A stretch of DNA of 64,000 nucleotides from Elusimicrobia bacterium GWC2_64_44 (GCA_001799845.1 MGUG01000035.1:717-64716); one strand, 5' to 3'; positions 12,090 through 33,700 are shown, counted from the first letter of the stretch. Notes: a model not told the origin generated them from the letters alone. Translations and numbers: made by a program.

Positions 12090-12839
12090 TTATTGGCCGA
12101 AGTCGAAGCCTTTGAACAAATCCTCTTCCGCCTGAGTGCCGCCCGCCGGCGCGGCAGTATCACCTGCCGCCGGCTTGGCCGGCTCCGGTCCCTTGGCGCC
12201 GGGCAGGCTCTGCATGCGGCCCTTGCCCTCGCCCACCGGCTGCACAATGATCTTGCGCACGCCCTCGGCGAAAGCCAGGAAGCCCGTGTCGAGGTTGAAA
12301 TAAAGCCGGAAAGGGGATTCCTTCATCTGCGGCTCGTAGGCCTTGCCCAGGTTCAGCCGCTGCTGGTCCCAGCCCGGGTTATAGACCAGCTTGCCGCGCA
12401 CGTCCACCTCGTTGTCGGTGACCGGCAGCGAAAAGTGTATCTTGAAGAGCCCCATGGTATCGCTGATGCCGGGCGCGAAAGAGAGGTTGATCCCGGCGCC
12501 GGCGTTCTCTTCCATGGCGAAGGCGTCCGCGCCGTCGCCGCCGCCGCCTGCCCCGCCCTTGCCCGCGTCGGGCAGCACCTTCACGGTGACGCCCTCTATG
12601 GGGTTGCCCTGGTAATCGGTGATCACGCCCTGGACGTTGCCGTCGAGGAAAGTGCCCATCTTGGTGGTGGAGAAGAACAGGAACTCGCGTTTGCCGGTGA
12701 CCTTCCTGGTCAGAGAGAGGTCGCCGACGCGGGAGTCGGTGAAATCCACCACCTTCAGGCGCTTAAGCCCGCCCATGCAGCCCGCCAGCGGGGCGGCCAG
12801 CAGCGCAACAGCCAGTAATTTAACGAGTCGCTTCTTCAT
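12090..12839 (-). CDS. lipoprotein (hypothetical), 4 nt downstream of motB
   Basis: Lipobox in MKKRLVKLLAVALLAAPLAGC. A carboxypeptidase-regulatory-like beta-sandwich hint (GVITDYQGNPIEGVTVKVLPD). Pro/Ala-rich C-terminal tail. Confidence 0.7.
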   Translation of the reverse strand: MKKRLVKLLAVALLAAPLAGCMGGLKRLKVVDFTDSRVGDLSLTRKVTGKREFLFFSTTKMGTFLDGNVQGVITDYQGNPIEGVTVKVLPDAGKGGAGGGGDGADAFAMEENAGAGINLSFAPGISDTMGLFKIHFSLPVTDNEVDVRGKLVYNPGWDQQRLNLGKAYEPQMKESPFRLYFNLDTGFLAFAEGVRKIIVQPVGEGKGRMQSLPGAKGPEPAKPAAGDTAAPAGGTQAEEDLFKGFDFGQ

Positions 12840-14767: not shown

Positions 14768-17128
14768 TTACTCTTTTTTGCCTTTCAGGGCCCACTTAAG
14801 CCGTCCGCCCAGGGAGGCTTCTATGGCCCGGTATTTTTCCAGCTCGGCGGCCAGCTCGGCGGCGCGGGCGTTCTGAGCGGCGTCCTGCTCGGCGGCGGCG
14901 GACTGCAGGCCGGCGGCCCTGGCCTGCTCGGCCTCCAGCTGGGAGGCGGCTTCCTGGGCCTGGAATTCCATCTGCTGGATCTTCTGCTTGAGGAAAAGCA
15001 GCTCGGATTCGAAGCGGGAGCGGTTCTCGGCCTCGAGGCGCAGGTTCTCGGCCTGGGCCTTCAGGTTCTCTCCCTGCCCGCGGAGGGCTTCGTCGGCTGC
15101 GGCTTTCTGGGCGGCCAGGGCGGCATAACCTTCGCGCAGGGCGGCATATTCCGCGGCCAGGCGCTGGCGGTCGGCCTCCAGGGCGCGCGCCGTCTTCTCT
15201 ACCTCTTCTTTCTGGCCCGCCAGCAGGGCGGCCTGCTCGTCGCGCAGCTTCACCGAAGCCGCGGCGCGGGACATCTCTTCTTCGAAGTGTCTGGCCTTCT
15301 CCGCCAGGGCGCGGTCAAAGGTGGAGGCGTCGCCGGCCAGGCGGCGGTTCTCGGCCTCCAGGCGGGCCACCGCTTCCTGCGCGGCGGCCGCGGCGGCGCG
15401 GGCTTCCTTGAGCTGGTCCGTGTAGACGGACTCCAGCTGCCGCTTCAGCGCGGACTTCTCTTCCTCGGCGGAAAATTCGTACTTCATGCGCAGCTGCGAG
15501 AGCTTGGCGTCGAAGTCGGCCTGGCGCTCCCCGGACAGCCGGGCGAGCTCGGCCTGCTGGGCGGCGGCCTGGCGGGCCAGTTCGGCCTGCTTATCGGCGG
15601 CTGCCTTGGCCAGCTCGGCCTGCTTATCGGCTGTCACCCGGGCCAGCTCGGCCTGTTTCTCGGCGGTCACCCTGGCCAGCTCTTCCTGGCGGGCGCGGTT
15701 GAGCTCGGAGATCTTTTCCTCGTGGCGGCGGTTGAACTCGGCGGTCAGCTCGGTGCGGACCTTCTCCACTTCAGCCGCGGCGCGGGCGGCCATGGCCTCC
15801 AGCTCCGCCTGGTGGGCGCCCTTTATGCCGTCGCTCTCCTGCCTGAGCTTGCGCAGCTCCTCGAGCTGGCCGGCCATGTTCTGGGCGAGCTGCATCTTCT
15901 CCAGCTTCAGCTGGCCGCGCTCCTTCTCCAGCACGGCGTTGATGGCCTGCACGCGGGCCACAAAGCCCTTGATCTTCATGAGCTCGGAAATGGCGCGGAT
16001 CTTCTCTCCGGACACGTCGGCCAGGAGTTTCTCTTTCTCCTGCAGCTGGGCCTCATAGCCCTCGGCGGCCTTGCGCAGGGCCTCGTTCATCTCGGAATTC
16101 TTGCGGTCGGACAGCGTGCCGATCTCGGCCTGCAGGCGGCCTATCTCGCCCTGCACTTTCTCGGCCTCGTAGCGGACCTTCTCCTCGCGGTGGGACGCCT
16201 CCAGCCGGGAGGTCTCCTCGCGGCCGCGCAGGGAGGCGTTCTCGGCCTTGAGGTCAGCGATCTCGCGCTCCTTCTCGGGCATCATCTTGATCCAGCCCTC
16301 GATGGAGGCCTTTTCGCGCTCGGCGCGCGCCACGTCGTCGCGCAGCTTGGACGCCTCGCGCTCGGTCATGGACTTCTCGAGCGAGACCTTGCGGAACTCG
16401 TCCTCTACGTCGCGCAGGCGCTCCGCGGAGGTCTTCAGCGAGCGGATCGTCTCTTCGCGGCTTGAAATTTCCTTCTGCCACTGGGCTTTCTCGTCCAGCC
16501 AGCGGCGCTCCATCTCCTGGAGGCGGTAGATGAAATGGCCCTCGGTGTCGCGGCCCTGGGTCTCGCGCTCGGACATCTGGTTCTTGAGCGTGGTCATCCA
16601 GGTCTCGCGCTCCTGCGCCAGGCGGGATTCCATCTCCTTGATCTTGGACTTCAGCGTGAGGCGCTCCTCCTCGACCTCGTGGTCGCGGCGGTCGCGGCGC
16701 ATCTTCTCCTGTATATCCTTAAGGGAGGTCTCCACGCGGGAGGAGAGCACTTCGTCCTGCTGGCTCTTCAGCGTGGCCAGCAGCGCCTTCTCCTTCTCGG
16801 CGGACAGGAGCTTCTCCATGTCGTTGATCTTCTTCTCCAGCTTGTCCTTCTCCTCCTGCATGCGGCGGGACTCCGCCTCGGCGGCGTCCCTCTGCGCCTG
16901 CGTGGGGCCGGCGGGAGGCGCGGGCTGCTGGAAGTTTCCGGGCATGGCCGGGAAGGCCGGCGCCTGCATACCGGGCAGCTGGGGCATGGACGGCAGAGAA
17001 GGCTTGCCGCCGGGAGGAAGCGGCGGCAGATTGGGTTTGGCCATGCCCGGGGGAAGCGGGGGCATGCCAGGTTTAAATTTGTTCTTGTCCTTGTCGTCCA
17101 TAAACATTGCGCCTAGAGCCGGTATCAC
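14768..17128 (-). CDS. polyproline N-terminus + very long coiled-coil protein (hypothetical)
   Basis: The ORF-track start at 17128 is GTG; an ATG at 17107 (MFMDDKDKNKF) is an alternative. The N-terminus is PPLPPGMAKPNLPPLPPGGKPSLPSMPQLPGMQAPAFPAMPG. About 700 aa of E/K/R/A/L-rich heptad-like sequence follows. It includes the tandem units AEKQAELARVTADKQAELAKAAADKQAELARQAAAQQAELARL. Confidence 0.75.
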   Translation of the reverse strand: MIPALGAMFMDDKDKNKFKPGMPPLPPGMAKPNLPPLPPGGKPSLPSMPQLPGMQAPAFPAMPGNFQQPAPPAGPTQAQRDAAEAESRRMQEEKDKLEKKINDMEKLLSAEKEKALLATLKSQQDEVLSSRVETSLKDIQEKMRRDRRDHEVEEERLTLKSKIKEMESRLAQERETWMTTLKNQMSERETQGRDTEGHFIYRLQEMERRWLDEKAQWQKEISSREETIRSLKTSAERLRDVEDEFRKVSLEKSMTEREASKLRDDVARAEREKASIEGWIKMMPEKEREIADLKAENASLRGREETSRLEASHREEKVRYEAEKVQGEIGRLQAEIGTLSDRKNSEMNEALRKAAEGYEAQLQEKEKLLADVSGEKIRAISELMKIKGFVARVQAINAVLEKERGQLKLEKMQLAQNMAGQLEELRKLRQESDGIKGAHQAELEAMAARAAAEVEKVRTELTAEFNRRHEEKISELNRARQEELARVTAEKQAELARVTADKQAELAKAAADKQAELARQAAAQQAELARLSGERQADFDAKLSQLRMKYEFSAEEEKSALKRQLESVYTDQLKEARAAAAAAQEAVARLEAENRRLAGDASTFDRALAEKARHFEEEMSRAAASVKLRDEQAALLAGQKEEVEKTARALEADRQRLAAEYAALREGYAALAAQKAAADEALRGQGENLKAQAENLRLEAENRSRFESELLFLKQKIQQMEFQAQEAASQLEAEQARAAGLQSAAAEQDAAQNARAAELAAELEKYRAIEASLGGRLKWALKGKKE

Positions 17129-17191: not shown

Positions 17192-17285
17192 GGGGACGTT
17201 GTTGAGTTGTTGAGTTGTTCGCAAAGTGTCTAGGGGGCAAGCATGGTCCATACATGAAACAACTCAACAACTCAACAACGTCCCC
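17192..17285. repeat. 28-bp perfect inverted repeat (long hairpin) between the FliF/FliG-fusion gene and the coiled-coil gene
   Basis: ggggacgttgttgagttgttgagttgtt (17192-17219) is the exact reverse complement of aacaactcaacaactcaacaacgtcccc (17258-17285). The loop is 38 nt. Each arm contains 2 tandem gttgagtt units. Confidence 0.85.
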
Positions 17286-17290
17286 TAAAT

Positions 17291-19243
17291 CTATCTCCCT
17301 ACGCTGGCCTTGAAACCGGCCAGCCATTCGGTGGCGGCGGGGTCACCGGACAGCGCGGCGTACTTCTCGTAGGCGGCCACGGCCTCGTCCACCCGCTGCA
17401 GCCCGTAATAGGCCGCGCCCAGGTACTGCCAGGTAGTCGCGTCGCCGGGGTTCGCGGACGAGGCGTATTCCAGGTACTGCAGGCTTTCCTGCACCTGACC
17501 CTGGTTGTACATATTGATGCCGGCGTCGGCGTACTGCTTCGCCTGCGCGGCCTGCTCCGGAGAGGGGCCGGCGGGGGCCTCTTCCTTCGGAGCGGCGCCT
17601 CCTGAAAGCTTCTCGTACTTCCTGCGGCGCTCGTCGCCCGAGGACATCTCGGCCCCGTCGATCAGGTAGATCTCCTGCGAGGAGCCGCCGCGCGAGGCGA
17701 TCTTGCCCTCCGCCTCCAGCGCCTTGATAGCGTCGAGGATCTTCATCTGCGCCTCGTCCTGCTGGGCCTGCGTGACGTTGCCGGAGTACTCCATGATCTC
17801 CTTGATGGCGTTCACCGCGCCCGAAGACATGTTGGCGAAGAACTTCTCCGAGATGGCCGGGTCGGCCTTGGCCACGGCGCGCGCGATATCCTCGTTGTTG
17901 AGGGCGCGGATAATGGTCTGGATGTCGCGGTCGGCGAACTCTATGATATCCTCGAACATCAGCACGATGCGCTTGACCTTGGCGTAGATGTCGGGCTTCT
18001 GCGTCTTGAGGTACTCTATGATGTTCTTGCGCGTGGCCGGGTCCGAGTCCTCGAGCATCTTCGACAGGCGCTCGATGCCGCCCATCACGAAATCGACGTT
18101 CTCCTTTATATCCCTGTCTATGGCGTCTATCTGCTCGCGCGTGGCCTGGCGCACCGTCAGCGCCTCCAGCGCCACGCGGCTCTGCATCTCCACGGGCAGC
18201 ATGGACAGCGCCTGGCGGGAAAGGTCCGGCTTCATATAGCTCAGCACTACGGCTATCACCCACGGGTCCTCTTTGCGCAGCAGGAACAGGTAGATGAGCC
18301 GCTTGAGGTTTTCCTCGTTCAGGTAAGTGAACGGTTCAAATTTCTTCATACTCTCGTCCTCTTCTTCCTTCTTCTCGTCCTCTTTCTGGAGGAAGTTCAT
18401 GTCTATGCTCTGGTGGCCCTCGGTCTCCTCCTTGCCCTCCTCATCGCCGCCGCCGCCTCCGCCCTCTTCCCGCTTGTCCTCTATGTTGACCTCGGCGCCG
18501 GGCTTGGCCATCAGGGCTTTGATGTACTTGCGGAAGAAGCCCCACAGCGGGCCGAACAGGAACAGCAGCAGCAGCAGGAACAGCAGCGCGTAAAGCAGGG
18601 GCAGGTAGACCGACGGCTTCTTGAGGTCGTCCAGGGGGTTAGCCGCCTTGAACTTGGTCGGTTTGAACAGCACGGTGGGCGCGTCCTTCTTGCGTATCTT
18701 GTAAGGCAGCAGGAAGTCGTCCACCCGCTCGCGGGCCAGTTTGACCGCGGCGGGCTGCAAAGTTTCGTCGTGGATGACGGTGAGCTGAAAGCGGGTGATC
18801 TCGGTCTCCACGCCGTAGCGGATCTCCTGCACGCCCTTGGCCTGCTGGGCCTGCTGGCCCGAGGCGGCTTCGGGGCGCTTGTTCTCCCCCCCCAGCACGG
18901 AGCGGGGCTTGGGAATGCCGGGCAGGATGAAATCGGTGTCGGGGCTGTCGGCGCCGGCGCCCTTCTCCTTGTACTTCTGCATGATGCCCAGGCCTTCCTT
19001 GGTCTGCTCGGCCTTCTTGGCTATCACTTCCAGTTCCACGTCGGCGAAGACGAAGGACCGGTCGGCCCCGAGGATGGGGTCGAGGATTTCCTTCTTGATC
19101 TTGGTCTCGGCCTCCCGGCGCAAACTATCCTGCTTCTCGAGCAGCGAAGTCTCCATCAACGGATTATCCGGGGCGTCCGCGGCATACATCCGCGCCGCCC
19201 CGAAGCCCGCAATGAGCGCCAGGACCGCAAAAAGCTTCCTCAT
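17291..19243 (-). CDS. membrane-anchored FliF(C-terminal ring/TM part)::FliG(middle+C domains)::TPR fusion protein
   Basis: Signal peptide MRKLFAVLALIAGFGAARMYA. FliF-like ring-building segments (ETKIKKEILDPILGADRSFVFADVELEV; EITRFQLTVIHDE). TM helix VYLPLLYALLFLLLLLFLFGPLW, then an acidic linker. FliG_M-like EDPWVIAVVLSYMKPDLSRQALSMLPVEMQSRVALEAL (EHPQ-box position). FliG_C-like RDIQTIIRALNNEDIARAVAKADPAISEKFFANMSSGAVNAIKEIMEYSGNVTQAQQDEAQMKILDAIKALEAEGKI. C-terminal TPR (AQAKQYADAGINMYNQGQVQESLQYLEYA...TWQYLGAAYYGLQRVDEAVAAYEKY). Confidence 0.75.
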   Translation of the reverse strand: MRKLFAVLALIAGFGAARMYAADAPDNPLMETSLLEKQDSLRREAETKIKKEILDPILGADRSFVFADVELEVIAKKAEQTKEGLGIMQKYKEKGAGADSPDTDFILPGIPKPRSVLGGENKRPEAASGQQAQQAKGVQEIRYGVETEITRFQLTVIHDETLQPAAVKLARERVDDFLLPYKIRKKDAPTVLFKPTKFKAANPLDDLKKPSVYLPLLYALLFLLLLLFLFGPLWGFFRKYIKALMAKPGAEVNIEDKREEGGGGGGDEEGKEETEGHQSIDMNFLQKEDEKKEEEDESMKKFEPFTYLNEENLKRLIYLFLLRKEDPWVIAVVLSYMKPDLSRQALSMLPVEMQSRVALEALTVRQATREQIDAIDRDIKENVDFVMGGIERLSKMLEDSDPATRKNIIEYLKTQKPDIYAKVKRIVLMFEDIIEFADRDIQTIIRALNNEDIARAVAKADPAISEKFFANMSSGAVNAIKEIMEYSGNVTQAQQDEAQMKILDAIKALEAEGKIASRGGSSQEIYLIDGAEMSSGDERRRKYEKLSGGAAPKEEAPAGPSPEQAAQAKQYADAGINMYNQGQVQESLQYLEYASSANPGDATTWQYLGAAYYGLQRVDEAVAAYEKYAALSGDPAATEWLAGFKASVGR

Positions 19244-19325
19244 ACAGTATTTATTTTATCTTTATCCTATTACAGAAAAGTTTCAGAATCGTTCATTCTT
19301 TACGGCTGGGGGCGCTCGTGGTTGG

Positions 19326-19633: not shown

Positions 19634-21250
19634 TTAGCGCACCTGCTTGAGGAAGTTGCGGACCATGGTGTTGTTGGGGTTGATCTCCACGACCTTCTCC
19701 CAGATGACCTTGGCCTTCTCCTTCTGGTCCATCAGGTAGAAAGAGCTGCCCATGATCTCGAGCGCGGTCTCGTTGTTGGGCTCGAGGTCCAGGATGTCCT
19801 GCGCGCGCTTCATGGCCAGGTCGTACTTGCCGTCATAGATGGCCTGGCGGGCGTCATAGGTGCGCTGGTCTATATAGGTAAAGATCTCGGGGCCCTCGGG
19901 CTTGCGGGTCAGCTCGCTCACGCCGGCCTCTTTCTCCACCATGTTCAGCAGCGACAGCAGGCGGTCGTTCTTCGGGTCCTTGTTGAAGGCGTGGCGCAGC
20001 ACGTTGACCGAGGCGCGCAGGTCCTTGCCGTCCACGTAGGAGATGATGCCGCGGCGGGTCAGGGTGGGCACCTCGTCGCCGCCGGTGGCGTCCGGCACGT
20101 AGTCGATGGCGCCCTGCAGGCGGGTCACCATGCGGCGGATCTCGGCGTTGCCGGGGTCGGCGTCCATCGCGGAGCGCAGTTTCTCCATCGCGCGGCCGAA
20201 GTAGCCGGACTTGAAGTACTGCAGCGCCTGGCGGATGATCTCGCGGACCTCGCGGTCGTGCTTGGCCTTGTTGCTCTGGCCCAGGCGCATCGTCACGGAG
20301 AAGCGGGTGGTGGTGCCGAGGGCGTGCACGCCCTGGGCGATGTCGAAGCCCAGGCTCTTGTACTTGATGCCGAGGCCGAAATCGGCCTCCTGGATCTCGG
20401 GGGAACCCATCACGCCGAAGCGCAGGGCGCTCCAGTACATCAGCCAGTACTCGCCGCCGAAGCGCCAGTTCATGTCGGCGCCCTGGGGCTTGACCAGGTC
20501 GAAGCCGAACAGCAGGCTGCCCTTGAACAGCGACAGCGCCTGGCCGAACTTCAGGGTCAGGGGCAGCTTGTCCTCGGTGTCGCCCGAGGCCATGGAGAAG
20601 ACGTTCTGGATGCCGATGGCGGCGCGGTAGGTCTTGGAGAACTTCTGCAGCATCGCGATGTCGATGGCGTTGAAGGAGTCGGCGGAGGTGTCCAGGGTGC
20701 GGGAGATGTTCTTGGCCATGATGCCGAAAGAAAGCTTATCGGAGACCTCGCGGCCCCAGGAGAAGGCCAGCGCGCGCTCCACGCTGTCGAAGGTGCCCAG
20801 GGTCTTGATGTCGATGATCTCGTCGCCGGCCGGGTTGGCGGTGATGGAGATCTTCTCAAAGCCCACCGACTTCAGCTGGGTCATGCTGACGGCCCAGGTG
20901 CCCTTGCTGGTAGTGGGGTGCGCGTAGGTGAAGAAGTTAAGGGTGGTGTCCGCGAACAGGGTGGCCTGCATCGCGGTGAACTCCTTGCGCTCGAGCATCG
21001 TCAGCGCGGCGGGGTTCCAGTAGGAGGCGGAGGCGTCGTCGGCCACCGCGAAGAAGGCGCCGCCCATGCCCAGGCCGCGGGCGCCGGCGCCGTAGCTCAT
21101 GAAGGCGCCGGGCTGGCCGCCGCTCTGCGCCAGGGCGTTAACGGCCGAAAAGGCAATAAAAAACCCCATGGCGAGGCTGAAGCGCATTATACGCTTCGTT
21201 TCAGCCCATATAGCCAAGGGGGCAAAGGCAATACAAAGATTGCTTTTCAT
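19634..21250 (-). CDS. FadL/PorV-like outer-membrane beta-barrel fused to a C-terminal TPR domain
   Basis: The likely true start is the ATG at 21187 (MRFSLAMGFFIAFSAVNALAQ signal peptide). The N-terminal barrel signature is AGARGLGMGGAFFAVADDASASYWNPAALTML, the FadL/TodX/PorV-type motif. Alternating beta-strand pattern runs to about aa 325. TPR-like repeats follow (YFKSGYFGRAMEKLRSAMDADPGN; YDGKYDLAMKRAQDILDLEPNN; KEKAKVIWEKVVEINPNN). Confidence 0.75.
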   Translation of the reverse strand: MKSNLCIAFAPLAIWAETKRIMRFSLAMGFFIAFSAVNALAQSGGQPGAFMSYGAGARGLGMGGAFFAVADDASASYWNPAALTMLERKEFTAMQATLFADTTLNFFTYAHPTTSKGTWAVSMTQLKSVGFEKISITANPAGDEIIDIKTLGTFDSVERALAFSWGREVSDKLSFGIMAKNISRTLDTSADSFNAIDIAMLQKFSKTYRAAIGIQNVFSMASGDTEDKLPLTLKFGQALSLFKGSLLFGFDLVKPQGADMNWRFGGEYWLMYWSALRFGVMGSPEIQEADFGLGIKYKSLGFDIAQGVHALGTTTRFSVTMRLGQSNKAKHDREVREIIRQALQYFKSGYFGRAMEKLRSAMDADPGNAEIRRMVTRLQGAIDYVPDATGGDEVPTLTRRGIISYVDGKDLRASVNVLRHAFNKDPKNDRLLSLLNMVEKEAGVSELTRKPEGPEIFTYIDQRTYDARQAIYDGKYDLAMKRAQDILDLEPNNETALEIMGSSFYLMDQKEKAKVIWEKVVEINPNNTMVRNFLKQVR

Positions 21251-21375: not shown

Positions 21376-21403
21376 ATTATAGCAGATAATATGGGTTTGT
21401 CAA
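21376..21403 (-). promoter_or_regulatory. sigma70-type promoter A (TTGACA-16 nt-TGcTATAAT)
   Basis: On the minus strand the -35 is TTGACA (21403..21398), the spacer is 16 nt, and the extended -10 is TGC-TATAAT (-10 at 21381..21376). The same architecture and spacing occur at 63342..63369. Confidence 0.7.
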
Positions 21404-21712: not shown

Positions 21713-24700
21713 CTAGTGAATTACGCCCACCTTGCGCATGATGACCTTGCTGCCCTTGGGGCTGGAGGCCTTCACGCGCACTATATAGCCGCCCTTGCCC
21801 ACCACGCCGCCCAGGCCGTTCTTGCCGTCCCAGAGCACGTGGTTCGGGCCCAGCTGACCGCCGGGGCCGCCGCTGGAGAACTTGAATTCGCGCACCACGT
21901 AGCCCAGCAGGTCGTAGATCGTCAGCGTCACCTCGGCGTTATCGTTGAGGGTATAGGTCAGGTCGACGCGGCCTTCCACGCCGCCCTTGCGCAGGTCCAC
22001 CGGGTTCGGGTAGCTGGAGACCTTGGAGAGCAGCTCCTCGCCTATGGTCGTGCCGGCCGGGGTGGAGACCGTGGACCATTCCGAATGCTCGCCGGCGAAG
22101 TTCCAGCTGCGCACGCGATAGGCGTAATACTGGCCCAGCGGCCGCGGGGTCTCGCCGGGCACGCCCGGGTCGCCCACGGTATAGATGTTGTTCAGCGCGC
22201 CGCCGGTCTTGAAGCCCGGGATGGCGGCGATGGTCTTCCAGACGGGGCTCGTGCCCTCGCGCTCCTGGATCTCGTAGGACATGATATTGGACTCCAGGTC
22301 CTGCGCCTGGTTCCACTTCAGCGCGTAGGCCTGGCCGGAGGCCACGCCCTTGGCCACCTGCGGCTCCGGCGCCCCGGGCGTGGTCGGGTAAGTGGTGTCT
22401 ATGCGGTAGATCAGCACCGGCACGCCGTTCTCGCTGGGGATGTACTGGCCCGAGGCCATCAGGCCGCGCACGGAGATGACGTAGGCGCGGTCGGACACCG
22501 TCTCGCCCCAATAGGTATGCGGGCCCTTGAACGAGCCCTGCACGCCGCGCTCCACGATCTTGAAGGTCTTGGCGTCGAGCTTGTTGACCAGCATGATCTC
22601 GTTGCCCACGTAGGCGATGCCCTCCGCGGCGAAACCCTCCGTGGAGTCCACCGTGAACGAGGAGGAGTTAACCTCGATGCGGCTGATCAGCTTGGTGAAG
22701 TGGCCGGGCGACAGCGCCACATTGGTCACCTTGCCGGTCAGCGCGGTGCCCACGGTCTGCCAGGAATTCTTGATGCCGGTCGGCTCGGCGTAGTTGCCGC
22801 CCAGCGAGACCTCGTAGGAGACTACAGGGCCGGAGGCCGGGTTCCAGAGGGCCGTCAGCTCGGTCGTCCTGGCGGACCAGGCCGAGGGCACGGCGCCCAG
22901 CTCGGAAACGGCCAGTTCGACGCGGGAGTTCCTCACGTTGTCGCCTATGAAGTAGAGCGGCTTGCCGGTGCCGTCGTCCACGATGCGGTCGGACACGTAG
23001 TCGAGGTTGGTCTCGAAGTCCAGCAGCCCGTCGCCGTCTATGTCGAAGGTGGGCAGGCCGGAGTTGTTCAGCGTGACGTTGAGGCACTTGCCCGAGCCGT
23101 AGAAGTCGAAGTTATCGGGCCGGCCGTCGCCGTTGATATCTATCAGCGGCTCGTCGGCCTTGCAGCCCGAGGCGGTGTAATTGTAGATCCAGCCCTTCCA
23201 GCCGGCGGGCACGGCGCCGTAGGAGACGCTGGCCGTGTTGGCGATGGGCAGGTTGCCCGCGCCCAGCACCACGTTGCCGCTGGAGTCGGTCATCGCGTAG
23301 GCGGGGTAGCCGTTGGACGCCAGCATGATGTTCTTGTACACCGGCGTCAGCGGGATGACGGCCGGGGCGATCAGGACCTGGTTGGAGGTCATCGGGTAGC
23401 TGTCGGAGAAATTCTGGCCGGCGGCCAGCGGCAGCCCGCCCAGGCCGCGCATGTCGTTGAAGGTGCCCAGCGACAGGCTGGCCAGGTGCCCCAGGGTGTC
23501 CGCGCCGGAGAGGTCGGTGGAGGAGCTGACGTCGGCGGAGAGGTGCAGCACCAGCCCGCCGGTGGACACTATGACGTAAGGCAGGTTGCCGTCCATGATG
23601 GTGACCGTGACCTGGCTCTCGAAGGGGTTAGTGGCGGAATTCACCGCGTAGCCCAGGCGGTAGTCCGAGATCGGGCTGAACGCGCCGTCGCCGTCGTCCT
23701 TCCACAGCGAGACCACGGCCAGGTCGCCGTCGCCGTAGCCCGCGGTGGCGCTGCTGATGGAGCCCCCCTGCGTGAAGTTGATCTGGCCTATCGCCACGAA
23801 GTCCGAGAGGGTCTCCAGGTTGAAGCTCAGCATCGGCACGTTGCGGGTGTTCTTCTCGGCCGACTTGGGCGAGACATTGGTCCCCGAGACGGCCAGCGTG
23901 ATGGCGCGGATGGGCACCAGGCTGGAACTGAACGGATAGATGTCGCTGTAGTTGCCCTTGGGCAGCGCCTTCGTGATCCCGATATAGACCGTCGGGGAGA
24001 TGTCGTGCGGCGCGTTGACCGTGAGCCAGGACTTGTCACGGATCATCAGGCCGACCTTGTTGGCCTTGATGGCCATTTCGCCGATGTCATAGACGGCGAA
24101 GAAAGTCTGCGCCAGCGGGCTCAGCGTCTGCGTCTGCGACAGCGAGACCGTGATCTGGGTGTTCAGCGCGTTGTCCTGGTCGAACAGGTCCACCTTGCGC
24201 ACCCTGGCCCCGGCGGGATGGTTGATCAGCGGCGTAATGAAGTCGCCCAGTTTCTCGCCTCTCGAAGTCACGTTCAGGTACGGCTTGCCGGAACCGTCGA
24301 TGCCGGAGCCGGAGTAAGTGATCAGTTCGGCGTCGCTGACATAGAGGCGGCCGGAGACCGGGAAGCCCTTGGTGGACTCCAGGACCAGCTGGAACGGCAC
24401 CGTATCCGTGGAGGTGAACGGCCTGTAGAGGGTGCTCCTGGCCTCGGAGATGTTGACGTCGTTCACGTCGAGCATGTCGTTCTGGTTCGAGTCCTGGTAG
24501 ATGGACACGAACTTGACGTCGGTGTTCTTGCCGAACGGCGCGTTCGGGTCGTTGGAGGCGCCGGTGCGCTGCACCTTTACGGCGCTCCAGCGGGCGTTGC
24601 CGGCCTCGGTGGTCAGGTTGAAGCGCACCATCGGCACGCCCACCTGCGCCTGGCCTACGCCGCCGCCCTGCACCAGGTCGGCGGCCATGTCGTTGGCGCC

Positions 24701-27700
24701 CAGCATAACGGGCGACGGGATCTCCCGCACCAGCACCGGGACGGTGTTGATGGGCCAGGTGGACAGGTTTATAGTGTTCGGGATGCCGATCGTGAAATTG
24801 GCAGCGGAACCGATGTTCAGCCCGGCGCTGGACCCGACGATGGCGAACTGGGACAGGTCGTAGCTGACGAAGGCGCAGACCGGCGTGGTGGTTATGACTA
24901 CGGGCGTCTTCAGCACTATATTGATAGTGCTCGAGGAGAAAGCCTCGTTGCCGTAGCTCATCATGTTGGGATAGACGCCGGCAGAGCTGCTGGACGTATC
25001 CACGGAATCCAGCAGACAGTTATCGTTGGAGTCCCGCCAGACCTTGATCAGGTCTATGTCGGAATCGTTGGCCGTGCCGAGGCGGTTGACCTTCACGGCC
25101 TCCAGCAGCGCGGAGGTCTTGTCGACGCTCATGCGCATGGACAGCAGGCCGACGTTCTTGTCGTTCTGCACGGCGGAGACCGGCGAAATATCCTCGGGCA
25201 CCAGCGACACGGTATTGAGAGTGGGCATCACCACGGTGTTGGGGCCCGCCACCGGGTTCAGGAACTGCGCGTTGTGGCCGGAGTTGTCGGGCCCGAAGAA
25301 GAAGCTGGACTCGAACGGGATCTCGGCGTTCAGCACGTCGTTGGGCGGCGTCAGCTGCGCGTGCGAGAACTTGGAGGTCTTGTCTATGTCCATCGACACG
25401 AAGATCGCCGTCGGGGTGGAACTGACCACCACGTAGTCCTGGTTGTTGAGAGCCGGGTCCGCCACGTAGATGGTGGCGCGGCCCACCGGGTCGTTCACGC
25501 CGAAGCGGCCCGTGCCTATCACGATGTCGGAGGTGTTCATGCCCGTGGCCGGGTCCCTGTCGAACACGCCGTTGCCGTTGTCCTTCCAGACGCGGATCAT
25601 ACCCACGTCGGAGTCGTAGCCGTTGAGGCCTGCCGGCTGCTTGCGGTTCAGGCGGAAGCCGCGCCAGCGCACGCCGTAGCCCGAGGTCAGCAGCGTCATC
25701 TTCATGTAGGGGTAATTATCCCAGCCCTGGTAGACCATGCCGCCCAGGACAGCGCCGTTAGCGTGCGCCAGCACCGGGGTGTTAAAGACGCCGCGCGTCA
25801 CCAGGGTGATGGCGCCCAGGGCAGTGCCCTCGTAGCGGACTATCTCGCCGTCCGCCATGGCGTAGCCGGCCGCCGGCAGGCCGGCGGTGGAGGTGACCAG
25901 CCAGGCCGGGTCCATGGTGCCGGCCGCGGCGCCGCCCGGCACGTCCAGCGCGAGGCGCACCGAGGGGATGGACGCGCCGCCGTCGGGCGCGAAGAGGGGC
26001 TCGGTATTCACGGTCACCGTGCTGGGAGCAGAAATGATCTCCCGCACCCTGGAAGAGAAGGTCAGGTTGGAATTAAGCGCCGAGAAGCTGTTGGGCAGCG
26101 ACAGGGAATTCTTTACCGGGTCCTCGGCGACGGGGCTGTTCTGCGGGAACGACTCCGCCTTCAGGTAGGCGCCCAGGTAGCGCGGGTTACCCAGCGAGTC
26201 GTTGGGCATGGCCGACTCGCGGATGTCGTAGGTCAGGAAGTAGCGCTTGGAAACCGCGAGCGTCTGGGACTGCAGCGAGGTGACCACGCGCCGCTCCGCG
26301 CCCAGGTCCACCCTGGCCACCAGCGGGCCGTAGATGGTATTGCCGAAGGTGCCCGTGCCGACCTGCTCGTCGAGGGCGCCCAGGAAGCCGTTGTCGTCCT
26401 TGTCGTACCAGACCTTAACGGCGGAGATATCGCTCACGGCCGAGCCTTCCTTGATGACGGTGCCGGTCGCGTACACCAGCATCCAGCGCCACATCGCGTC
26501 GGCCACGTCCGTCTCCACCGTAAAGGACAGGATGGGCTGGTTCTGGGCCTTCTGCTGCAGCGTGGCGCCGGTGTACGTGTCGGAGGCCTTCACGGTCACC
26601 TTGTCGGAATACTCCGAGACGCGGCCTATCAGCGAGAGCGTCTTGCCCGGGGAGGTGACGCCGATATTGCCGGCGCTCATGAACTTGGGCGCCTCTATCT
26701 GGAAATAGTCGGTGGTGCGGATGGCCATGCCGATGTAGGCAAAGTTGGACACATTGGCCAGAGGATCTATGTCGTAAGTTACGAAGTAGTCTTTGGATTC
26801 CTTGTAAAGGACCTGGCCGTCCATGCTGCCGCCGTCGCCCACCAGGGGCAGGACGGCCTGGCCGGAGATAATGGTGCCGCTGCCCCAGACCACCTGCACG
26901 GTACCCTCGGCCCCGCGGGTAATGCCGCCGAACTCGTTGTTCAGCACGTCCACGGTGGAATAGTAGACGACTTCCTTGAGCGACGGGTCTTCCTGGTTGT
27001 CGTTGACGATCAGGCGGCCGGGCGCGCGCGGGAAGGGGCTGTCCGCGGGGAAGAATTTCTGGATGTCGCCGACGCGGATCACCGTATCGGTAGAGACCAG
27101 GGGCAGCCGCAGCGAGTCGTACGGGAAGGTGCGGTTGCTGACGCCGACCAGCAGCACCTCGGTGTCCTTGACCGTGGTGGTGGTCTGCAGCAGCCCGTCG
27201 CCCGTCGAGTCCTGCCAGATGCTGATCTTCTTAACGTCGGTGACCTTGTTCCACGCGGCGGTATTGCCGTTCTCGGCGGCGGTCACCCAGCGGTCCAGCT
27301 TGAGGCCGCGCCAGACGGCGGAACCGATAGTGTCCTTGATATTGAGCGTCAGGCGCGCCACGGGCTTGTTCACGTCGTTCTGCGTCACGAACGAGGGTTT
27401 GCTGAAGTCGTTCGGGGCCGCCTTGTTCACGTCGGACAGGTAGACCATGTCAGAGGTGGCGAACAGCGGCACCGTGGACGACACGATGGGCGCGAAGGAG
27501 CCGACGACGCCGTCGATCAGGCTGATGCCGGAGTTCTCCAGGCGCGCGCCGTGCGTCAGGTTGGGGATCGCGTCCGTAGCGAACTCGTAGACGACGTAGA
27601 AGGTCTTGGTGCTGATGGAGACGGCGCCGTCCACGCCCGGGTTATAGAGCGGCAGCACGAAGGTGCCGGGGTCGGCCGGGTCGAAAGTGGGCGGGTTGGC

Positions 27701-30700
27701 CGGGTCCGTTATTTCCTTGTCGATGGCCTGGTCGAAGACCGTCGGGGTGCTCTCGTCCACCTCGAGGAAGAGGCGCACGCTCTTGAGGTCCTGGCCGGAG
27801 CCGGTGCCGGTCTTGATGATCTTGAACGACTTTATCGTACCCACGAAGTTGTCGGTCCAGGCCTCTATCTTCAGGAAGCCGGCGCGCTCCACGCTCTGCT
27901 CCACGTAGTTATACTGCGCCGCGTTGACGCCGGCCTGCCACCAGGCGCCGATATCGGTGCCCTTGACCAGCACGGTGGCGGGCTGGTTGCGCACCGGCGA
28001 GGTGGCGGTCTGGATCGGGAAGTTGTTGTAGGCCACGCCCACGAAGGTGGAGTTCAGCACCACGAACGACGGGTTGTTCATCACCAGCGCGAAGCTGCGC
28101 GGCGTGGCCGCCACGGTGGACATGCGTACCGCGAAGTAGAAGTTGCGCGGCGTGTTGGAGACGATGGCCGCGGTGGAGACCTTGGTGTTCAGGTCGTCGA
28201 ACCTCCAGCCCTGCAGGTCGGTGTCGTAGGTGCCGCTGGACATGAGGATGTCGGTGGGAGAACCGCCGAGCACCGCCTCGCCGTCGAAGACGCCCAGCTG
28301 GCCGGCCGTCTCGTTATCCTTGTACATGTTGATCTGGATAATGTCGGAGTAAGCCAGCGTGCCCGAGCTCTTGATCTGCACGGACTTCAGGTAGGCCGGC
28401 GGCGCGCCGGCCGGCGAGGTCTGCATGGTCAGGCGCAGCATGGGCACCGGGGCCGGGATGTCGGCTATCACGCCGTCGCCCTGGTAGATGGCGTACTTAT
28501 TGATGCCGATGGAGGTTTTGGAGACGGGCAGCGGGTCCTCGGGCGAGAAGTCGCGCGGAGTTATCACCAGGCCCGACAGCACCACGTCGCCGCTGGAGCC
28601 CTGCGGCAGGCCGCGCGCGCTGTCCAGGGTATAGCCGTAGATCTGCGTCTGGTGGTAGTCGGTCACGTTGACCTTCAGCGTTTCCACCATCGTGTCGTAG
28701 ACCATCAGCGTGCGCTCGCCCTGGTCGGCGGGGACGAAGATATAATCCGTGGTGTTGTTGATGTAGTCGCGCAGGTCGGCCGACCCCTTGGAGTTGGTCG
28801 TCATCTTTATCTTGCCGGTGTAGTACATGCCGTTGACCGGGTCGCCGGTGGCCACGTTGCCGAACTGGTCGCGGGCGCGCAGGATCAGCGAGCCCGGGGT
28901 CTGCACGCGCAGGGGGCTGGCGAGCGTGTAGCCATGGTGCAGCGTGAAGTAGGCCGCCGTGCTGGGCGTGATGTATTGCTCCTGGGAGATGGGCGCCAGG
29001 TTGACCCCGTAGGCGGCTATGAAGGAGTTGGCCGTGATCGGGGCGGTGCCCACGAGCTTGTCCCACACGTAAATATTGGCGAAAGAGTAGCCCGCCGGGA
29101 TGTCCAGGTCGAGCGGGTTGGTCTTCAGCAGCTTCCAGCTCGGGTTGGAGTCCAGCACGGGCGCGGCGGGGTCGATGCCGCCGAAAGTGGTATTGCGCGT
29201 GGACGAGAAGCGCACGCTGACCGGCGAATTGGTGGTCGTATTGTTCTCGAAGCTGTCCTTGAGCGCCACCGTCACCACGGTGGGCACGGTCACGCCGGTA
29301 ACGAAGTCGGCGTACTGCGTGGTGGTACCGGCTATCAGGCGGCGCGGCGGGGTGTAGAACATCACGTGGTCCGGGGGCGCGGGCACCACGGTATAGGAGG
29401 AGATGGCCGGCAGCCAGCCCTTGGGATAGGCGGGCAGGTTGTCCACCCGGAGCTGATGCGTCGTGGGCGAGACCAGCGTGTCCAGCAGGTAGAAGCTGGT
29501 GGAGGCCTGGCCCAGCGCCATGTTGGCCGTGCCGGGCTGCGGCGCGAAGGTGTCCTTGTCGGGCGCGGAGAACCTGACGTTGCCCAGGGAGGTGGACTCC
29601 AGGGAGAAAGTCACGCCCGCGCCCGCCGCATCCTCCTGGCCGCCTGCCACCGGGGTCGGGTTGCCGTAATGGTCCTCGATGGACAGCAGGAACATCTGCG
29701 AGGTCACGCCGGCGGTCAGCACCTGGCCCGCGTTGTAGCTGACGTTGATGCGGTAGGTCAGGTCGGGAACTATCACCACGGACTGGGTCGAGGCCGACCA
29801 GCCTTCGCGGTCCGGAACGGCGACCCTGATGACGGGCCGCACCGGAGCGGCGGAGGACGGATAGACGGTGGAAGCCGTGGTATCCATGTAATAGAAGGTC
29901 GTCATGAAGGCGTTCAGCGGGATGTCAACGTAGGACACCGTGGACGAGAAGACCGGCGGGAAGGCGCCGGACACCGTGCTGGAGGCCGAGAAGGAGAACG
30001 CGTCGTTGATCAGCGAGGACTGGCGGGTGAAGGTGGACAACACCACCTGCACCGGGGCGGTGGCCACGGAGGGGTTGGCGAACATATCGCGCAGTTCGGC
30101 CTTGAAGACCTGCACATCGCCGAACTTGTCGGTGATCTTGCCGGCCGTCATCGAGCGGGGATCGTTGCCGAAGGCCACCTGCGCCACCTGCGCCGGGTTG
30201 ACCCGCAGCTGGTGGATGGCCGGCTGCATGGAGCCGGACCGGGCCTCTATCTGCCAGTAGCCAGGCCTGTTGTCCTCGAAGGTGTTGGCGGCCGGCGAGG
30301 TGCCGGAATACGAGGAGGTCCTGTCGTGGTAGCGGAAGGACGCCCTGGTCTGGTTGGGCGGGATGATCACCGCGTTGATGAACTGGTCGTGCAGCACGGT
30401 GCGGAAGCCGTAGTCGCCCACGTTGCCGAAGGTGGCCATGGTCCGGCCGAGGCCGGTATGCACCGCCACCTGGGCCGCCGGGAGGCCCAGGTAGACGCCC
30501 GTCTCGCCCTGCTTGGTCACGTTGTCGAAGTCGTCGCGGCGCTCCACGGTGAAGAACGCGCCGGTGGCGCCCATTTCCTGGATGCCGACCAGGGCTTCCG
30601 TCTGGCTGGAGTAATAAACAAGCTTGGTCGGCGTGCCGCCGGTGGTGGTCAGCTGGCCGCTCAGGTTCTGGCGGGCGGCGGCGTAGGTGCCGTAGGAGGC

Positions 30701-33700
30701 CGGGTTCAGCGTGGTGGTGCCTAGCCAGACGCGGGCCCAGTCCCCCGCCTTGCTGGATACCTGGTAGGCGATCGGGGTAGAGAGGCCTACCCTGCCGTCC
30801 GAATCAGTATAGACCAGCGTGGAGACGCCCATGTCGATCCAGTTGGAGCCGCTCCTGTAGCGCACGCTGCCGGTGGAGCCGTAGACCTCTCCGATGGAGA
30901 CGTAGGCCGGCAGGCCCGCCGAGGAGATGCTGTTATTGAAGGCGTCGGTGAGCTGCGCCGTAAGCTGCTGTACGCCGGGCGCCAGCAGCGAGCCCGCCGG
31001 CACCTCTATGTCGGCGTCGGGCGAGACGGTATAGACCATCGGCGGGCCGGGGTTGACCTGCAGCGCCAGCGACGGGGTAACGCCGATGGCGGCGTTGAGC
31101 GAGTCGTGCGCGCCGATGGTGTCGGGGCCGGCCTTGCGCAGCGTGAACCAATTGACCAGGCTCTTAACGCCGTAATCCGCCGAAATGTAGCCGGTAACGG
31201 TGTCGGCCAGCGTCGGGTCCTGGATGGAGTTGACGCGGTCCGTCACCACGAAGGCCGCCGTGCCAAGATAGACGTTGGGGCCGGTGGAACAGATGTTGTT
31301 GTAATTATCCAGCACGTAAAGCTGGGCGGAGAAGGGCACGCCGGCCACCACTATCGTGGAGGCGACGACGAAGGACATGCTGACCGCCGGGCCGGGGTTG
31401 ACCGTCATCGTGGAGAGCCCGGTGGCGTAGTCAGCGGGCGAGGCCGGGGTGGTGGCGGCCATCACCGTGTAGCTGCTGATGGAGGTGCGGGCGTCCACCG
31501 CGAACACGGCGCTGCCGTTGGCCAGCGTCTGCGGGGCCGGGGCCAGGGGCTTCGGGTCGTTGGGCGTGGTGACGCGCACCTCGGGCATCACGGCGGGCGG
31601 GTTGGTATCCTGCGAGGGGCCGGAGCCTTCCGTGACCTTGTTGAAGAACAGGTCGGTCAGGAAAACGCCCGCGAACAGGGCCCCGGTGCCTATGGTGTGC
31701 TGGGAAGGCGGGCCGCTGCGGCCGGGCCAGGAGAGCGAGGAACTGCGGCACGGCGGGCTGACGGCGCACTTGCCCTCCGCCAGCGTCTGGCCGGGCAGCA
31801 CCACTTCCAGCCGCACGGCGGTGGAGGCGTAGACCTTGAAAGAGTCCCTGGCCGCCGTGTTGTCGTTGCGGCAGACGCCGCCCGGGTTGCCGAAGCAGAC
31901 GTAGTTGTCCCCCGCGTCCTGCGGGAAGACCTTGACCGAGGCGGCCGAAGTGCGGGTGACCAGGTTCAGCGGCAGCTGCTTGCTGCCGAAGTTCAGCGGC
32001 ACGCTGTCGGAATCGATGTCGTAAATGTCGGAGGTTACGAGGTACACCGTGGGACCCACCGACAGGTCCTGGTAGACGTTCATGTACTTGTCCACCAGGT
32101 TGATGGTGGCCGTGAAGCCGGTGCCGGCGGTCTGCGTGGAGGCCGCCAAAGACTTGCCGCTGGCCCCCGCCAGGTAATCGCCCGAGCCGGGCAGCGCTAT
32201 CTCTCCGGGCAGGATCAGCTGCAGGCCCACGGGGTCGGAGGGCCGCAGCGTGAACGTGGAGGATTTGGGATCGTCCACCAGGCCCGAGCCGCCGAAGTCC
32301 GTGGCGGACAGGTAATGGGTGGCCGCGCGGCGCATCGACAGGAAGATCAGGTCGGTATAGCCGTAGGTGGTGTTGACCGCCACGGTGGCCACCGAGGGGG
32401 CATAGGCGTCGGTGGGGGTGTTAAGTTTTACGTCCACCGGCCGGCCGGGCACCAGGTTGAAGTAATCGTCCACGACGCCGACGCGAACGCCGAATGTGCC
32501 GTCCACGGTCTGGGCCGAGGCCAGGCCGGTCTTGCCGTTGGAAGAGGACTGTCTGAAGCCCTCGCCCGGCAGCGTCAGCAGCAGGCGGCGCGGCACGCCG
32601 GGGCTCACGTTGACCACGCTGGTAAGGTCCTGGGCGAGCACGGGGCCGCCGGCCAGGCCCGGGGGAACGGTCTGCGCGGTAAGGGTGGTGGTGCCGGCCC
32701 GGATAGGCGTCACGCTGAAGGTCGCCGAGCCGGTCACGATCTGGGAAGCGGGCACGACTATGGCGGTCGGGTCGTCGGAGAGCAGGCGGATCTCCTGGCT
32801 GGCGCCGGGGGTCAGGTTCCAGAAAGCGTCGGTGATGTCCACCGTTACGGTGAAGGGCACGCCGGCCTGCTGCGCGGGGATCGGGCCGGTGCGGCCGTTG
32901 GTAGTGGACCCGGAGACCCGCGTCTCCACGGGCACCAGCGCGCGTATCCTGGTGGGCGTGTGAGGCACCAGCAGCAGGCCGCCGCTGACGGTGGTGCCGA
33001 GCGGCGGCACGGTGCCGCTGTTGTCGTTGACGGTGAGCGTCCTGGAGCCGGCCGTGCGCAGGAAGACGTTATTGATGGTGGCGCTGCCGTCCACCATGCT
33101 GTAGGCGTTGCCCAGCACGCCGTCGGCGGCGGGGCCGGCGAAGGTGTCGTTGGTAGTGACGCGCAGCGTCTTGTCGAGCGCGGCGTCGTCCACGCGGTTA
33201 TAGCGCGAGTCGGCCGCGTAGACCTGCGCGTCGAAGTAGACGCCGGCGGTCTGCGTGGAGATCTCGCCTTGCACGCCGAAGGGCGCGACCACCTTGCCGG
33301 GCACCAGGTACTGCGTGGGCAGCAGCACGATCAGGCGGGAGGCCGCGCCGGGCACTACCGTTATGTTGTAGTCGGTGCTGGTGGACAGCTTGGGCTCTAT
33401 CGTGTCGGCGTCGGCGGCGCTGATCACCAGGTTGGCGGTGGCCGCGCTGGGCAGGAAGCTCAGGATATCCGCCGAGCCGTTGGCCAGCGACTGGGCGGCG
33501 TGCGTGGACGCGTAGATGTCATTGGAGGTTATCTGTACGCGGCGGCCGTCGCTGACCAGGTTGCCGAAGTCGTCCACGGCGCGCACGGTGAGCGTATAGG
33601 TAGCGCCGGCTGTCAGAGGGCCGGCCGTGCCGGTCTTCCAGCCTATAGCGCCTTCGGAAGCCGCTTCGGTGGGCACCAGCAGCAGCAGGTGCCTGGCCGG

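Follow-up and report, generated by a model that had tools for sequence, protein, structure and literature searches.

What use has a bacterium for the core of a flagellar motor, if not for a flagellum? Complete flagellar gene sets were found in only a few Elusimicrobiota, and most free-living members of the phylum carry flbD, motAB and fliG in a role called ‘enigmatic’ or unclear (Uzun et al., bioRxiv 10.1101/2022.07.08.499144). We address the question with a stretch of 64 000 nucleotides (‘the window’; positions are counted from its first letter) from Elusimicrobia bacterium GWC2_64_44 (GCA_001799845.1 MGUG01000035.1:717-64716). A gene on its minus strand codes for a 650-residue protein that a preliminary description of the sequence had taken for a natural fusion of the C-terminal part of FliF, the middle and C-terminal parts of FliG and a TPR domain, perhaps a repurposed MS/C-ring-like rotor. 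The reading that we favour, with modest confidence, is that of a non-flagellar motor of the flagellar, ion-driven type, in which the fusion would be a one-polypeptide, MS/C-ring-like rotor, with MotAB as its drive and a coupling to the PorV-type handling of giant surface fibres.

The open reading frame (ORF) of the fusion contains every motif quoted in the preliminary description (EILDPILGADRSFVFADVELEV, residues 52-73; EITRFQLTVIHDE, residues 148-160; EDPW, residues 325-328; NMSSGAVNAIKEIM..., residues 471-515). A chance or spurious ORF was ruled out by 359 homologues at E ≤ 1e-5 and by 63 syntenic loci; the best 120 of the 359 homologues were 59-94% identical to the window protein, almost all with full-length coverage, and relatives are automatically annotated as ‘flagellar motor switch protein FliG’. 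From the N- to the C-terminus we saw a signal peptide, a periplasmic ring domain like ring-building motif 3 (RBM3) of FliF, a transmembrane (TM) helix, an acidic linker, FliG_M, FliG_C and TPR. The protein is thus FliF(RBM3 plus TM2-equivalent)::FliG(M+C)::TPR, without RBM1, RBM2 and FliG_N. Canonical FliG is a soluble protein of about 330 amino acids (aa) whose N-domain docks on the FliF C-terminus; RBM1 and RBM2 house the export gate, and FliG_N makes the non-covalent FliF-FliG joint.

The fold of the periplasmic domain was modelled and compared with known structures. An AlphaFold model of residues 30-208, built from an alignment of 27 sequences, had a predicted local distance difference test (pLDDT) score of ∼90 in its core. 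In a Foldseek search against PDB, ranks 1-18 were all RBM3/collar (S-ring) chains of FliF from Salmonella and Vibrio, the sole significant PDB matches (E = 7e-5 to 6e-3, Foldseek probability 0.96-1.0); rank 19 was SpoIIIAG (5wc3, E = 0.095), and lower ranks were noise. Furthermore, an exhaustive search of 1.84 billion representatives with a profile of the N-domain family gave 117 clusters. Among distant full-length relatives with identical architecture, the N-domains of P0206, P0233 and P0236 pass the PF08345 (YscJ_FliF_C) gathering threshold of 23.8 bits with 36, 32 and 24 bits; the N-domain of the syntenic orthologue L062 passes it too (24.4 bits, model positions 1-147 of 147), and nine further relatives have a precomputed PF08345 match. 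When the family profile was aligned by hhalign with E. coli FliF as the only target sequence, the score was not significant (probability 2%, E = 0.023), with the conserved helix-strand ‘EILDPILG..FVFADVELEV’ placed in the right register, on FliF 230-272 at the RBM3 start. Judged by its predicted fold and, transitively, by its orthologues, the periplasmic domain is a FliF RBM3/collar fold; the preliminary description had spoken of FliF-like ring-building motifs. No match to RBM1/RBM2 (PF01514, YscJ_FliF) was found in the fusion, which has one TM helix, not two, and only about 12 residues between the signal peptide and the RBM3-like domain. The motifs of the insert at the collar position are kept in relatives down to 38-45% identity; the insert has a mean consensus fraction of 0.70.

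The cytoplasmic part is FliG. The Pfam families FliG_M (PF14841, 41.8 bits, cutoff 25), FliG_C (PF01706, 86.6 bits, cutoff 23.3) and TPR_2 (29.4 bits, cutoff 27; residues ∼560-640) all score above their cutoffs, and the closest solved relative is FliG_MC of T. maritima (1lkv, E = 2.4e-32). The fliG equivalog model TIGR00207 aligns residues 305-525 to its positions 112-336 of 338 with 113.6 bits; the cutoff of 226.7 bits is missed because the FliG N-domain is absent. A weak Pfam match to FliG_N overlaps FliG_M and lies below the cutoff, so FliG_N is lacking; the proposal that a TM helix and a linker replace the FliF-FliG_N interface by a covalent connection is thereby upheld. The EHPQ position reads EDPW (within K-E-D-P-W, with E325, P327 and W328 invariant); the FliM-binding motif is thus changed, and neither fliM nor fliN was found in the window or in the flanks of the 63 loci.

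In the torque helix, K467, G475 and E482 are invariant in 57 of 57 sequences, and position 485 is E or D in all 57. Of the torque-helix charges, whose conservation the preliminary description had proposed to check, the equivalents of E. coli FliG K264 (K467) and D288 (E482) are both invariant, and those of R281 (the invariant G475), D289 (I483) and R297 (T or S at 491) are not conserved; Endomicrobiia members retain the acidic pair as EE at the D288/D289 positions. In the classical E. coli pairs, MotA R90 meets FliG D288/D289 and MotA E98 meets FliG R281 (PMC12505986). On the stator side of our loci, MotA K91/K92 (PomA R88/K89, E. coli MotA R90) is invariant in 46 of 46, and the equivalent of E98 varies (E in 29, Q in 17). 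On both partners the D288/R90-type pair is therefore frozen; of the R281/E98 pair, the rotor has lost its member and that of the stator is relaxed. Such coherent retention and loss would be expected from a real, simplified FliG-MotA contact.

The stator genes lie close by. The genes from 62098 down to 12090 are all on the minus strand, in the order giant protein, barrel, fusion, coiled-coil protein, FlbD, MotA, MotB and lipoprotein. MotA has full-length matches to C. sporogenes MotA (8ucs, E = 2.6e-50) and PomA (E = 3.6e-45) and was also aligned to 6ysf and 8bri; MotB has the channel Asp (in NYADLMT), the plug region and an OmpA-like peptidoglycan-binding domain. With the MotA torque interface and these MotB features, the stator belongs to the flagellar ‘FIT’ class as delimited in PMC12505986. 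All NCBIfam stator equivalog cutoffs are missed (e.g. MotP with 235 bits against 394), which makes it a divergent member.

One genome per species was scanned, giving 63 loci, all from Elusimicrobia metagenome-assembled genomes (MAGs), in which the neighbours of the window fusion were placed by tblastn. Barrel, fusion, coiled coil, FlbD, MotA, MotB and lipoprotein keep a common order on a single strand across the 63 species genomes: the coiled-coil gene was found in 61 of 63 loci, the barrel gene directly upstream of the fusion in 55, motA in 51, motB in 46, the lipoprotein gene in 43 and the C-terminus of a giant protein upstream of the barrel gene in 37, most absences being caused by contig ends. 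In every locus that extends far enough (51 of 51), flbD-motA-motB lies downstream of the fusion, with flbD 6-352 nt upstream of motA. The fusion had been described as having an outer-membrane barrel, and not flagellar genes, for a neighbour; the barrel does adjoin it, but flbD, motA and motB follow in the same operon. With these genes beside the fusion and the conserved interface, the idea of a repurposed MS/C-ring-like rotor is strengthened, rotation itself being something that we infer. Coordinates of all features are collected in Table 1.

Table 1. Features of the fusion gene and of the operon around it, with positions in the window
Feature	Position	Strand	Basis
Fusion gene, 650 aa, ATG start	17291..19243	-	ORF call, domain searches, models, 359 homologues
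Signal-peptide-like N-terminus, MRKLFAVLALIAGFGAARMYA/AD, aa 1-21	19181..19243	-	Read from sequence
Periplasmic RBM domain, topology as in RBM3 of FliF (alpha, beta, insert, beta, alpha, beta), aa 34-196	18656..19144	-	AlphaFold model, Foldseek, PF08345 in orthologues
Collar-position insert, motifs QKYKEK, DFxLPGIPKPK, QQAQQxKG, aa 81-139	18827..19003	-	Conserved; disordered in monomer model
Single TM helix PSVYLPLLYALLFLLLLLFLFGPLWGF, aa 210-236 (approx.)	18536..18616	-	Sequence and AlphaFold model; invariant columns
Acidic Gly/Glu-rich disordered cytoplasmic linker, aa 246-298	18350..18508	-	pLDDT < 50 and composition
FliG middle domain, aa 321-383	18095..18283	-	Pfam FliG_M, E = 1.3e-10
FliG C-terminal domain, aa 411-515	17699..18013	-	Pfam FliG_C, E = 1.7e-24; aligned to T. 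maritima and E. coli FliG
Torque helix, aa 467-491 within FliG_C	17771-17845	-	FliG alignments
C-terminal cytoplasmic TPR module, aa 561-650	17294..17563	-	Pfam TPR families; pLDDT 86-96
Giant secreted protein, 13,461 aa, immunoglobulin (Ig)-like repeats, C-terminal domain (CTD) like type A of type IX secretion systems (T9SS) (FlgD_ig / Por_Secre_tail-like)	21713..62098	-	ORF call, near-cutoff CTD matches
Sigma-70-type consensus promoter (TTGACA, 16-nt spacer, TG-TATAAT)	21376..21403	-	Perfect consensus match only
PorV/PorQ-family outer-membrane barrel with C-terminal TPR domain, 538 aa as listed	19634..21250	-	NF033709
Coiled-coil protein, 786 aa, Pro-rich N-terminus (PPLPPGxKP repeats)	14768..17128	-	No Pfam family
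FlbD, 74 aa	14455..14679	-	Pfam PF06289, 83.3 bits, E = 8.7e-24
MotA/PomA-type stator A subunit, 261 aa	13654..14439	-	Pfam MotA_ExbB, 99.5 bits
MotB-type stator B subunit, 263 aa	12844..13635	-	Pfam MotB_plug and OmpA; 6ysf MotB E = 1.9e-28
Lipoprotein, 249 aa, lipobox LAGC, hypervariable Pro/Ala linker, invariant C-terminal peptide EEDLFKGFDFGQ	12090..12839	-	Comparison of loci

Within the fusion, the signal peptide, single TM helix and acidic Gly/Glu linker of the preliminary description were recovered from the sequence and the AlphaFold model, the first of them at the level of ‘signal-peptide-like’: the short hydrophobic N-terminus ends MYA/AD, a predicted cleavage site, and has a consensus fraction of 0.34 in 57 fusion sequences. 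Signal peptides are usually poorly conserved. RK-rich residues after the TM helix place its N-terminal side in the periplasm and its C-terminal side in the cytoplasm. The top segments of the same 57 sequences are the TM helix (consensus fraction 0.90), the pre-ARM segment (0.90), the juxtamembrane segment (0.86) and FliG_M (0.85); conservation as high as this in the TM helix, its surroundings and FliG_M is unexpected for a mere anchor.

The giant protein has a Sec signal peptide, is rich in Thr, Ser, Gly and Ala and consists of Ig-like repeats, each of ∼120-140 aa and bounded by xDxTxP; by eye, its C-terminus has the pattern YPNP...IYD..G...WDG.N..G....G.Y typical of such CTDs. Very large genes are frequent in Elusimicrobiota. 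The barrel matches NCBIfam NF033709 with 111.2 bits (cutoff 90), the specific PorV, PorQ and PorV2 equivalogs staying far below their cutoffs, and Pfam gave TPR and a weak UPF0164 match. Its true start is probably an internal Met near 21187, just before the signal peptide MRFSLAMGFFIAFSAVNALA/QSG. The consensus promoter sits between the giant gene and the barrel gene, a position which suggests that the genes from barrel to lipoprotein may form their own transcription unit. The flbD gene, directly upstream of motA, is short enough to escape normal ORF-length cutoffs.

For the lipoprotein, neither a Pfam or NCBIfam family nor a homologue among PDB structures was found. Its tail follows the consensus E-[ED]-D-L-F-K-G-F-[DG]-F-G, essentially invariant across about 40 loci (strict F-x-G-F-x-F in 33 of 40 readable tails, most others having Ala for Gly, FKAF), and looks like a docking peptide. 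The terminal TPRs of the fusion (cytoplasmic), of the barrel (periplasmic) and of a long coiled-coil protein of Endomicrobiia loci are alike; together with the conserved motifs and the Pro-rich repeats of the coiled-coil protein, this suggests that TPR-peptide docking may occur on both sides of the inner membrane. In the window the cluster is flanked by two genes for HEAT-repeat proteins (10000-11907 and 62105-62953, both on the minus strand), the one at 10000-11907 having OmpL47-type/Big domains as well. This HEAT/OmpL47 gene was considered and rejected as a member of the system; it is absent from all 63 related loci and is an insertion peculiar to this genome.

More divergent relatives (27-36% identity, GC content 29-62%) come from genomes named Endomicrobiia or Elusimicrobiota by their sources. 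As far as contigs permit, the Endomicrobiia-type loci retain the barrel-TPR gene, the fusion and a coiled-coil homologue. Of four distant loci, three (L065, L067 and L070) have the barrel directly upstream of the fusion, with 35-40% identity; the contig of the fourth, L069, runs out about 300 nt upstream of the fusion. Coiled-coil homologues were seen in L067, L069 and L070 and, more weakly, in L065. A homologous giant gene was seen in L067; it codes for 17,141 aa, and its C-terminal 1,000 aa are 31% identical (E = 3e-136). Some loci of this type add a coiled-coil/TPR protein of ∼1,600 aa or a small CTD-only protein. In L065 (GC 34%) a Roadblock/LC7 (MglB-like) gene lies at 15798-16145, just 3′ of the coiled-coil homologue; two plain PorV genes also occur in this locus, as do genes for cargo that bears Por_Secre_tail/CHU_C domains.

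A few loci depart from the common plan. In L040 genes for CheR, CheB and CheA with a CheW domain (15962-20020) come directly after barrel, fusion and coiled coil and replace flbD-motAB; a 1,460-aa NHL/TPR protein stands upstream in the place of the giant gene. The loci L045 and L050 (fusion at 6618-8453 and 9932-11782, respectively) have neither a barrel nor a lipoprotein gene, and DFxLPGIPKPK, the collar motif, has degenerated in both, DFLMADIASPRP. The upstream genes in L050 code for an S41 protease and FtsH; the TPR of the fusion and the Pro-rich N-terminus of the coiled-coil protein are kept there.

The RBM3-like domain was also met outside the fusion. The metagenomic protein P0145 (539 aa) has a domain of the same family fused to FtsK_4TM and FtsK_alpha. 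A separate family is made up of short (160-270 aa) secreted stand-alone RBM3-like proteins (P0135-P0139, P0146, P0136, P0147; members in loci at L071 8001-8657 and L073 8001-8723), which carry the motif of the lipoprotein tail, EEDLFKGF[DG]FG, inside the collar-position insert; in groundwater MAGs their genes adjoin genes for a FlgO/CsgG-like lipoprotein and a response regulator. We rejected the idea that they are split versions of the fusion system, as their neighbours are the FlgO/CsgG-like lipoprotein genes and they come from other MAGs.

Ring formation, rotation, the physical couplings and the output we infer as follows. The periplasmic RBM3-like domain would oligomerise into a ring like the S-ring/collar, and the invariant TM helix would anchor this ring in the inner membrane. 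FliG_M and FliG_C would form a membrane-proximal ring whose torque helix would be engaged by the cytoplasmic face of FlbD-MotA-MotB stator units; with MotB anchored to peptidoglycan, proton or sodium flux would turn the ring or at least exert torque on it. The cluster has no export gate of a type III secretion system (T3SS), no rod, hook or filament and no FliM/FliN; the ring would couple instead to the PorV-family barrel with its periplasmic TPR. The barrel would hold the T9SS-like CTD of the giant Ig-repeat surface fibre, the invariant peptide of the lipoprotein would dock, and the Pro-rich coiled-coil protein, presumed cytoplasmic, may be a ligand of the fusion's own TPR. The output would most likely be gliding-like, with the giant adhesin travelling along the surface as SprB does under GldLM, or else energised deployment or anchoring of this adhesin. 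One could speculate further, on rather doubtful ground, that Elusimicrobiota possess a previously unrecognised envelope-spanning rotary machine, in which a T3SS-free, one-polypeptide FliF/FliG rotor turned by MotAB would drive a giant single-protein surface fibre via a PorV-type outer-membrane adaptor, a new mode of surface motility or fibre deployment.

Several observations weigh against a motor of this kind. All evidence is computational, drawn from sequence and predicted structures. For the window copy of the N-domain, Pfam and NCBIfam searches with the full protein gave no FliF/SctJ family, nor did a search of Pfam with the isolated domain at E ≤ 10; the family profile found nothing among all PDB sequences at E ≤ 10. 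The preliminary description had regarded an N-terminal region without FliF/SctJ similarity in profile searches as fatal to the fusion; direct matches of the window copy are indeed lacking, but the objection is overturned by the fold and by the transitive evidence of the orthologues. The TM-scores to FliF are only 0.32-0.45, a modest level that is due to the ∼60-residue collar insert being unmodelled in the monomer. Among the five classical torque-helix charges, R281, D289 and R297 are not conserved, G, I and T standing in their places. The giant protein's CTD stays below cutoffs (FlgD_ig 26.5 bits, cutoff 27; TIGR04183 16.8, cutoff 23), and no T9SS core component (GldLM/PorLM, PorKN, SprA/Sov, PorU) was found in the window or in the conserved flanks. 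Neither motA nor motB was found within 10 kb in Endomicrobiia-type loci, so adjacency of the stator is lineage-specific. The proposed TPR-peptide couplings draw on motif conservation and on one lineage (L045/L050) that pairs barrel loss with motif decay. 

The gene neighbourhoods would fit equally well an energiser that runs on proton motive force (PMF) without continuous rotation. The fusion would then be a stator-docking adaptor in an energy relay like Ton/Tol or PorLM: MotAB would push FliG_C, and force passing through the TM helix and the periplasmic domain to the barrel would power the secretion, the release or the anchoring of the giant protein. Secretion by T9SS also depends on PMF, via a 5:2 motor (gliding/T9SS review), the invariant TM helix suits force transmission, and just one charge pair is retained at the interface. 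We regard such a relay as rather unlikely, because the RBM3/collar fold is known from large closed rings (FliF and SpoIIIAG), it is through FliG_M and FliG_C that FliG polymerises into a ring, MotA belongs to the flagellar, torque-generating type and not to the ExbB/TolQ type, and a PorV-type barrel is no known translocon for unfolded giant proteins. A defence system such as Zorya was considered and rejected: in PADLOC, MotB had no more than a generic ZorB/MotB similarity, the five remaining proteins had no match and ZorA was not found.

That the protein is a divergent fused FliF/FliG of a normal basal body in flagellated bacteria is what its automatic annotation as FliG, the flbD-motA-motB order typical of flagellar operons and the existence of a few Elusimicrobiota with complete flagellar gene sets (Uzun et al., bioRxiv 10.1101/2022.07.08.499144) would lead one to expect. 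We consider it very improbable: the domains that house the export gate and FliG_N are missing, the FliM-binding EHPQ motif is altered, no other flagellar gene was found in the 64-kb window or in the ±10-kb flanks of the 63 loci, a PorV-family barrel and giant CTD proteins being the conserved neighbours, and most free-living Elusimicrobiota with these genes are reported without flagellar structural genes (bioRxiv 10.1101/2022.07.08.499144). The order fliF::fliG ... flbD-motA-motB also resembles a collapsed flagellar operon, which might be the decaying, functionless leftover of a lost flagellum; with frames intact and conservation very high over 63 species, an architecture that persists to 27-36% identity in another class, and new conserved parts gained (TPR, collar motifs, lipoprotein tail), a remnant is scarcely credible. 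Equally far-fetched is a FliG-fold sensor or regulator, akin to the MgtE N-domain or another ARM-type module unrelated to stators. A weak MgtE_N match (23.9 bits, E = 6e-5) points that way, and the preliminary description had left room for MgtE_N to prove the better match; the score is below the cutoff and far under the 86.6 bits of FliG_C, the T. maritima FliG_MC alignment has E = 2.4e-32, stator genes are always adjacent in Elusimicrobia class loci that extend far enough, and the fusion has no transporter domain. The motor with a one-polypeptide rotor is thus the reading that we retain.

The component families are known; the architecture and the system are undescribed in the literature that we found. 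The fusion, its PorV partner and the operon are mentioned neither in a 2025 survey of MotAB evolution nor in a 2026 review of gliding machinery, nor did targeted literature searches turn them up. The operon explains the published puzzle of flbD, motAB and fliG in non-flagellated free-living (including magnetotactic) Elusimicrobiota: these genes belong to a dedicated operon that also codes for a FliF-like ring domain, for a PorV-type barrel and for giant surface proteins. It links flagellar rotor-stator parts with T9SS-style PorV/CTD sorting, machineries thought unrelated, and suggests how surface fibres of 13,000-17,000 residues are handled. With an S-ring/collar, one TM helix and FliG_MC per chain, the fusion would be a natural minimal rotor, free of export gate and FliM/FliN, in which torque generation invites study by structural and single-molecule methods. 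Should the motor core work without type III secretion, the modular separability of motor and secretion in the origin of the flagellum becomes directly testable. If the proposal of a rotary machine is true, it is either a living sister of a pre-flagellar rotor or a flagellum radically reduced to the bare motor, and in either case the rotor-stator core works without a secretion apparatus; phylogenies of FliG, MotA and FlbD could separate a reduced flagellum from a sister lineage.

Of known systems, the flagellar motor's core (FliF MS-ring, FliG C-ring, MotAB/PomAB) is the closest. FliF forms an MS-ring of about 33-35 subunits, and FlbD accompanies MotAB in spirochaete and Firmicute-type flagellar operons. 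Like that core, the fusion has the RBM3/collar fold followed by a TM helix, as well as FliG_M, FliG_C and the torque helix with the D288/R90-type pair kept, and the operon has flagellar-type MotA, MotB and FlbD, echoing the order fliF-fliG ... flbD-motA-motB. Unlike it, the fusion is one polypeptide and not two, a signal peptide replaces TM1, housing for a T3SS export gate is lacking along with RBM1/RBM2, FliG_N is lacking too, EDPW stands for EHPQ, R281, D289 and R297 are unconserved, and a TPR is added at the C-terminus. The cluster has no genes for FliM, FliN, rod, hook or filament; around the fusion lie genes for the PorV-family barrel, the giant CTD protein, the coiled-coil protein and the lipoprotein.

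In Salmonella, engineered FliF-FliG fusions are functional. These laboratory constructs (in-frame in Salmonella; Vibrio rings, PDB 8z4d and 8z4g; PMC11481574) share with the window protein a covalent link that is compatible with ring assembly, and 8z4d, a fusion chain, aligns with the window protein's FliG part. In the constructs no domain of FliF or FliG has been dropped, and they work as part of a complete flagellum, whereas the window fusion occurs in nature, is shortened on either side of the junction and has a non-flagellar context.

SpoIIIAG, which belongs to the feeding-tube channel of sporulation and builds a large periplasm-like ring from a ring-building motif with a large beta insertion, was the next-best structural match to the periplasmic domain. 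The match is much weaker than that of FliF, and SpoIIIAG has no FliG part or stator and belongs to another biological context.

Zorya ZorAB, AglRQS and ExbBD/TolQR are, like the operon's stator, 5:2 ion-driven motors outside the flagellum. Unlike them, the stator considered here is of the flagellar (FIT) type and keeps the plug, the peptidoglycan-binding domain, FlbD and a FliG partner.

With the T9SS and gliding machinery of Bacteroidota (GldLM/PorLM, PorV shuttle, SprB-type adhesins) the operon shares a 5:2-type ion-driven motor, a PorV/PorQ-family barrel and a very large repetitive surface protein that ends in a type-A-like CTD, and the distant locus L065 has CTD-bearing cargo with PorV genes nearby. 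No description of T9SS in Elusimicrobiota was found in the literature. The operon differs from that machinery in a barrel that carries a TPR domain, in a cluster without SprA/Sov, PorU, PorK and PorN, and in a motor made of MotAB and a FliG-type rotor instead of GldLM with GldKN.

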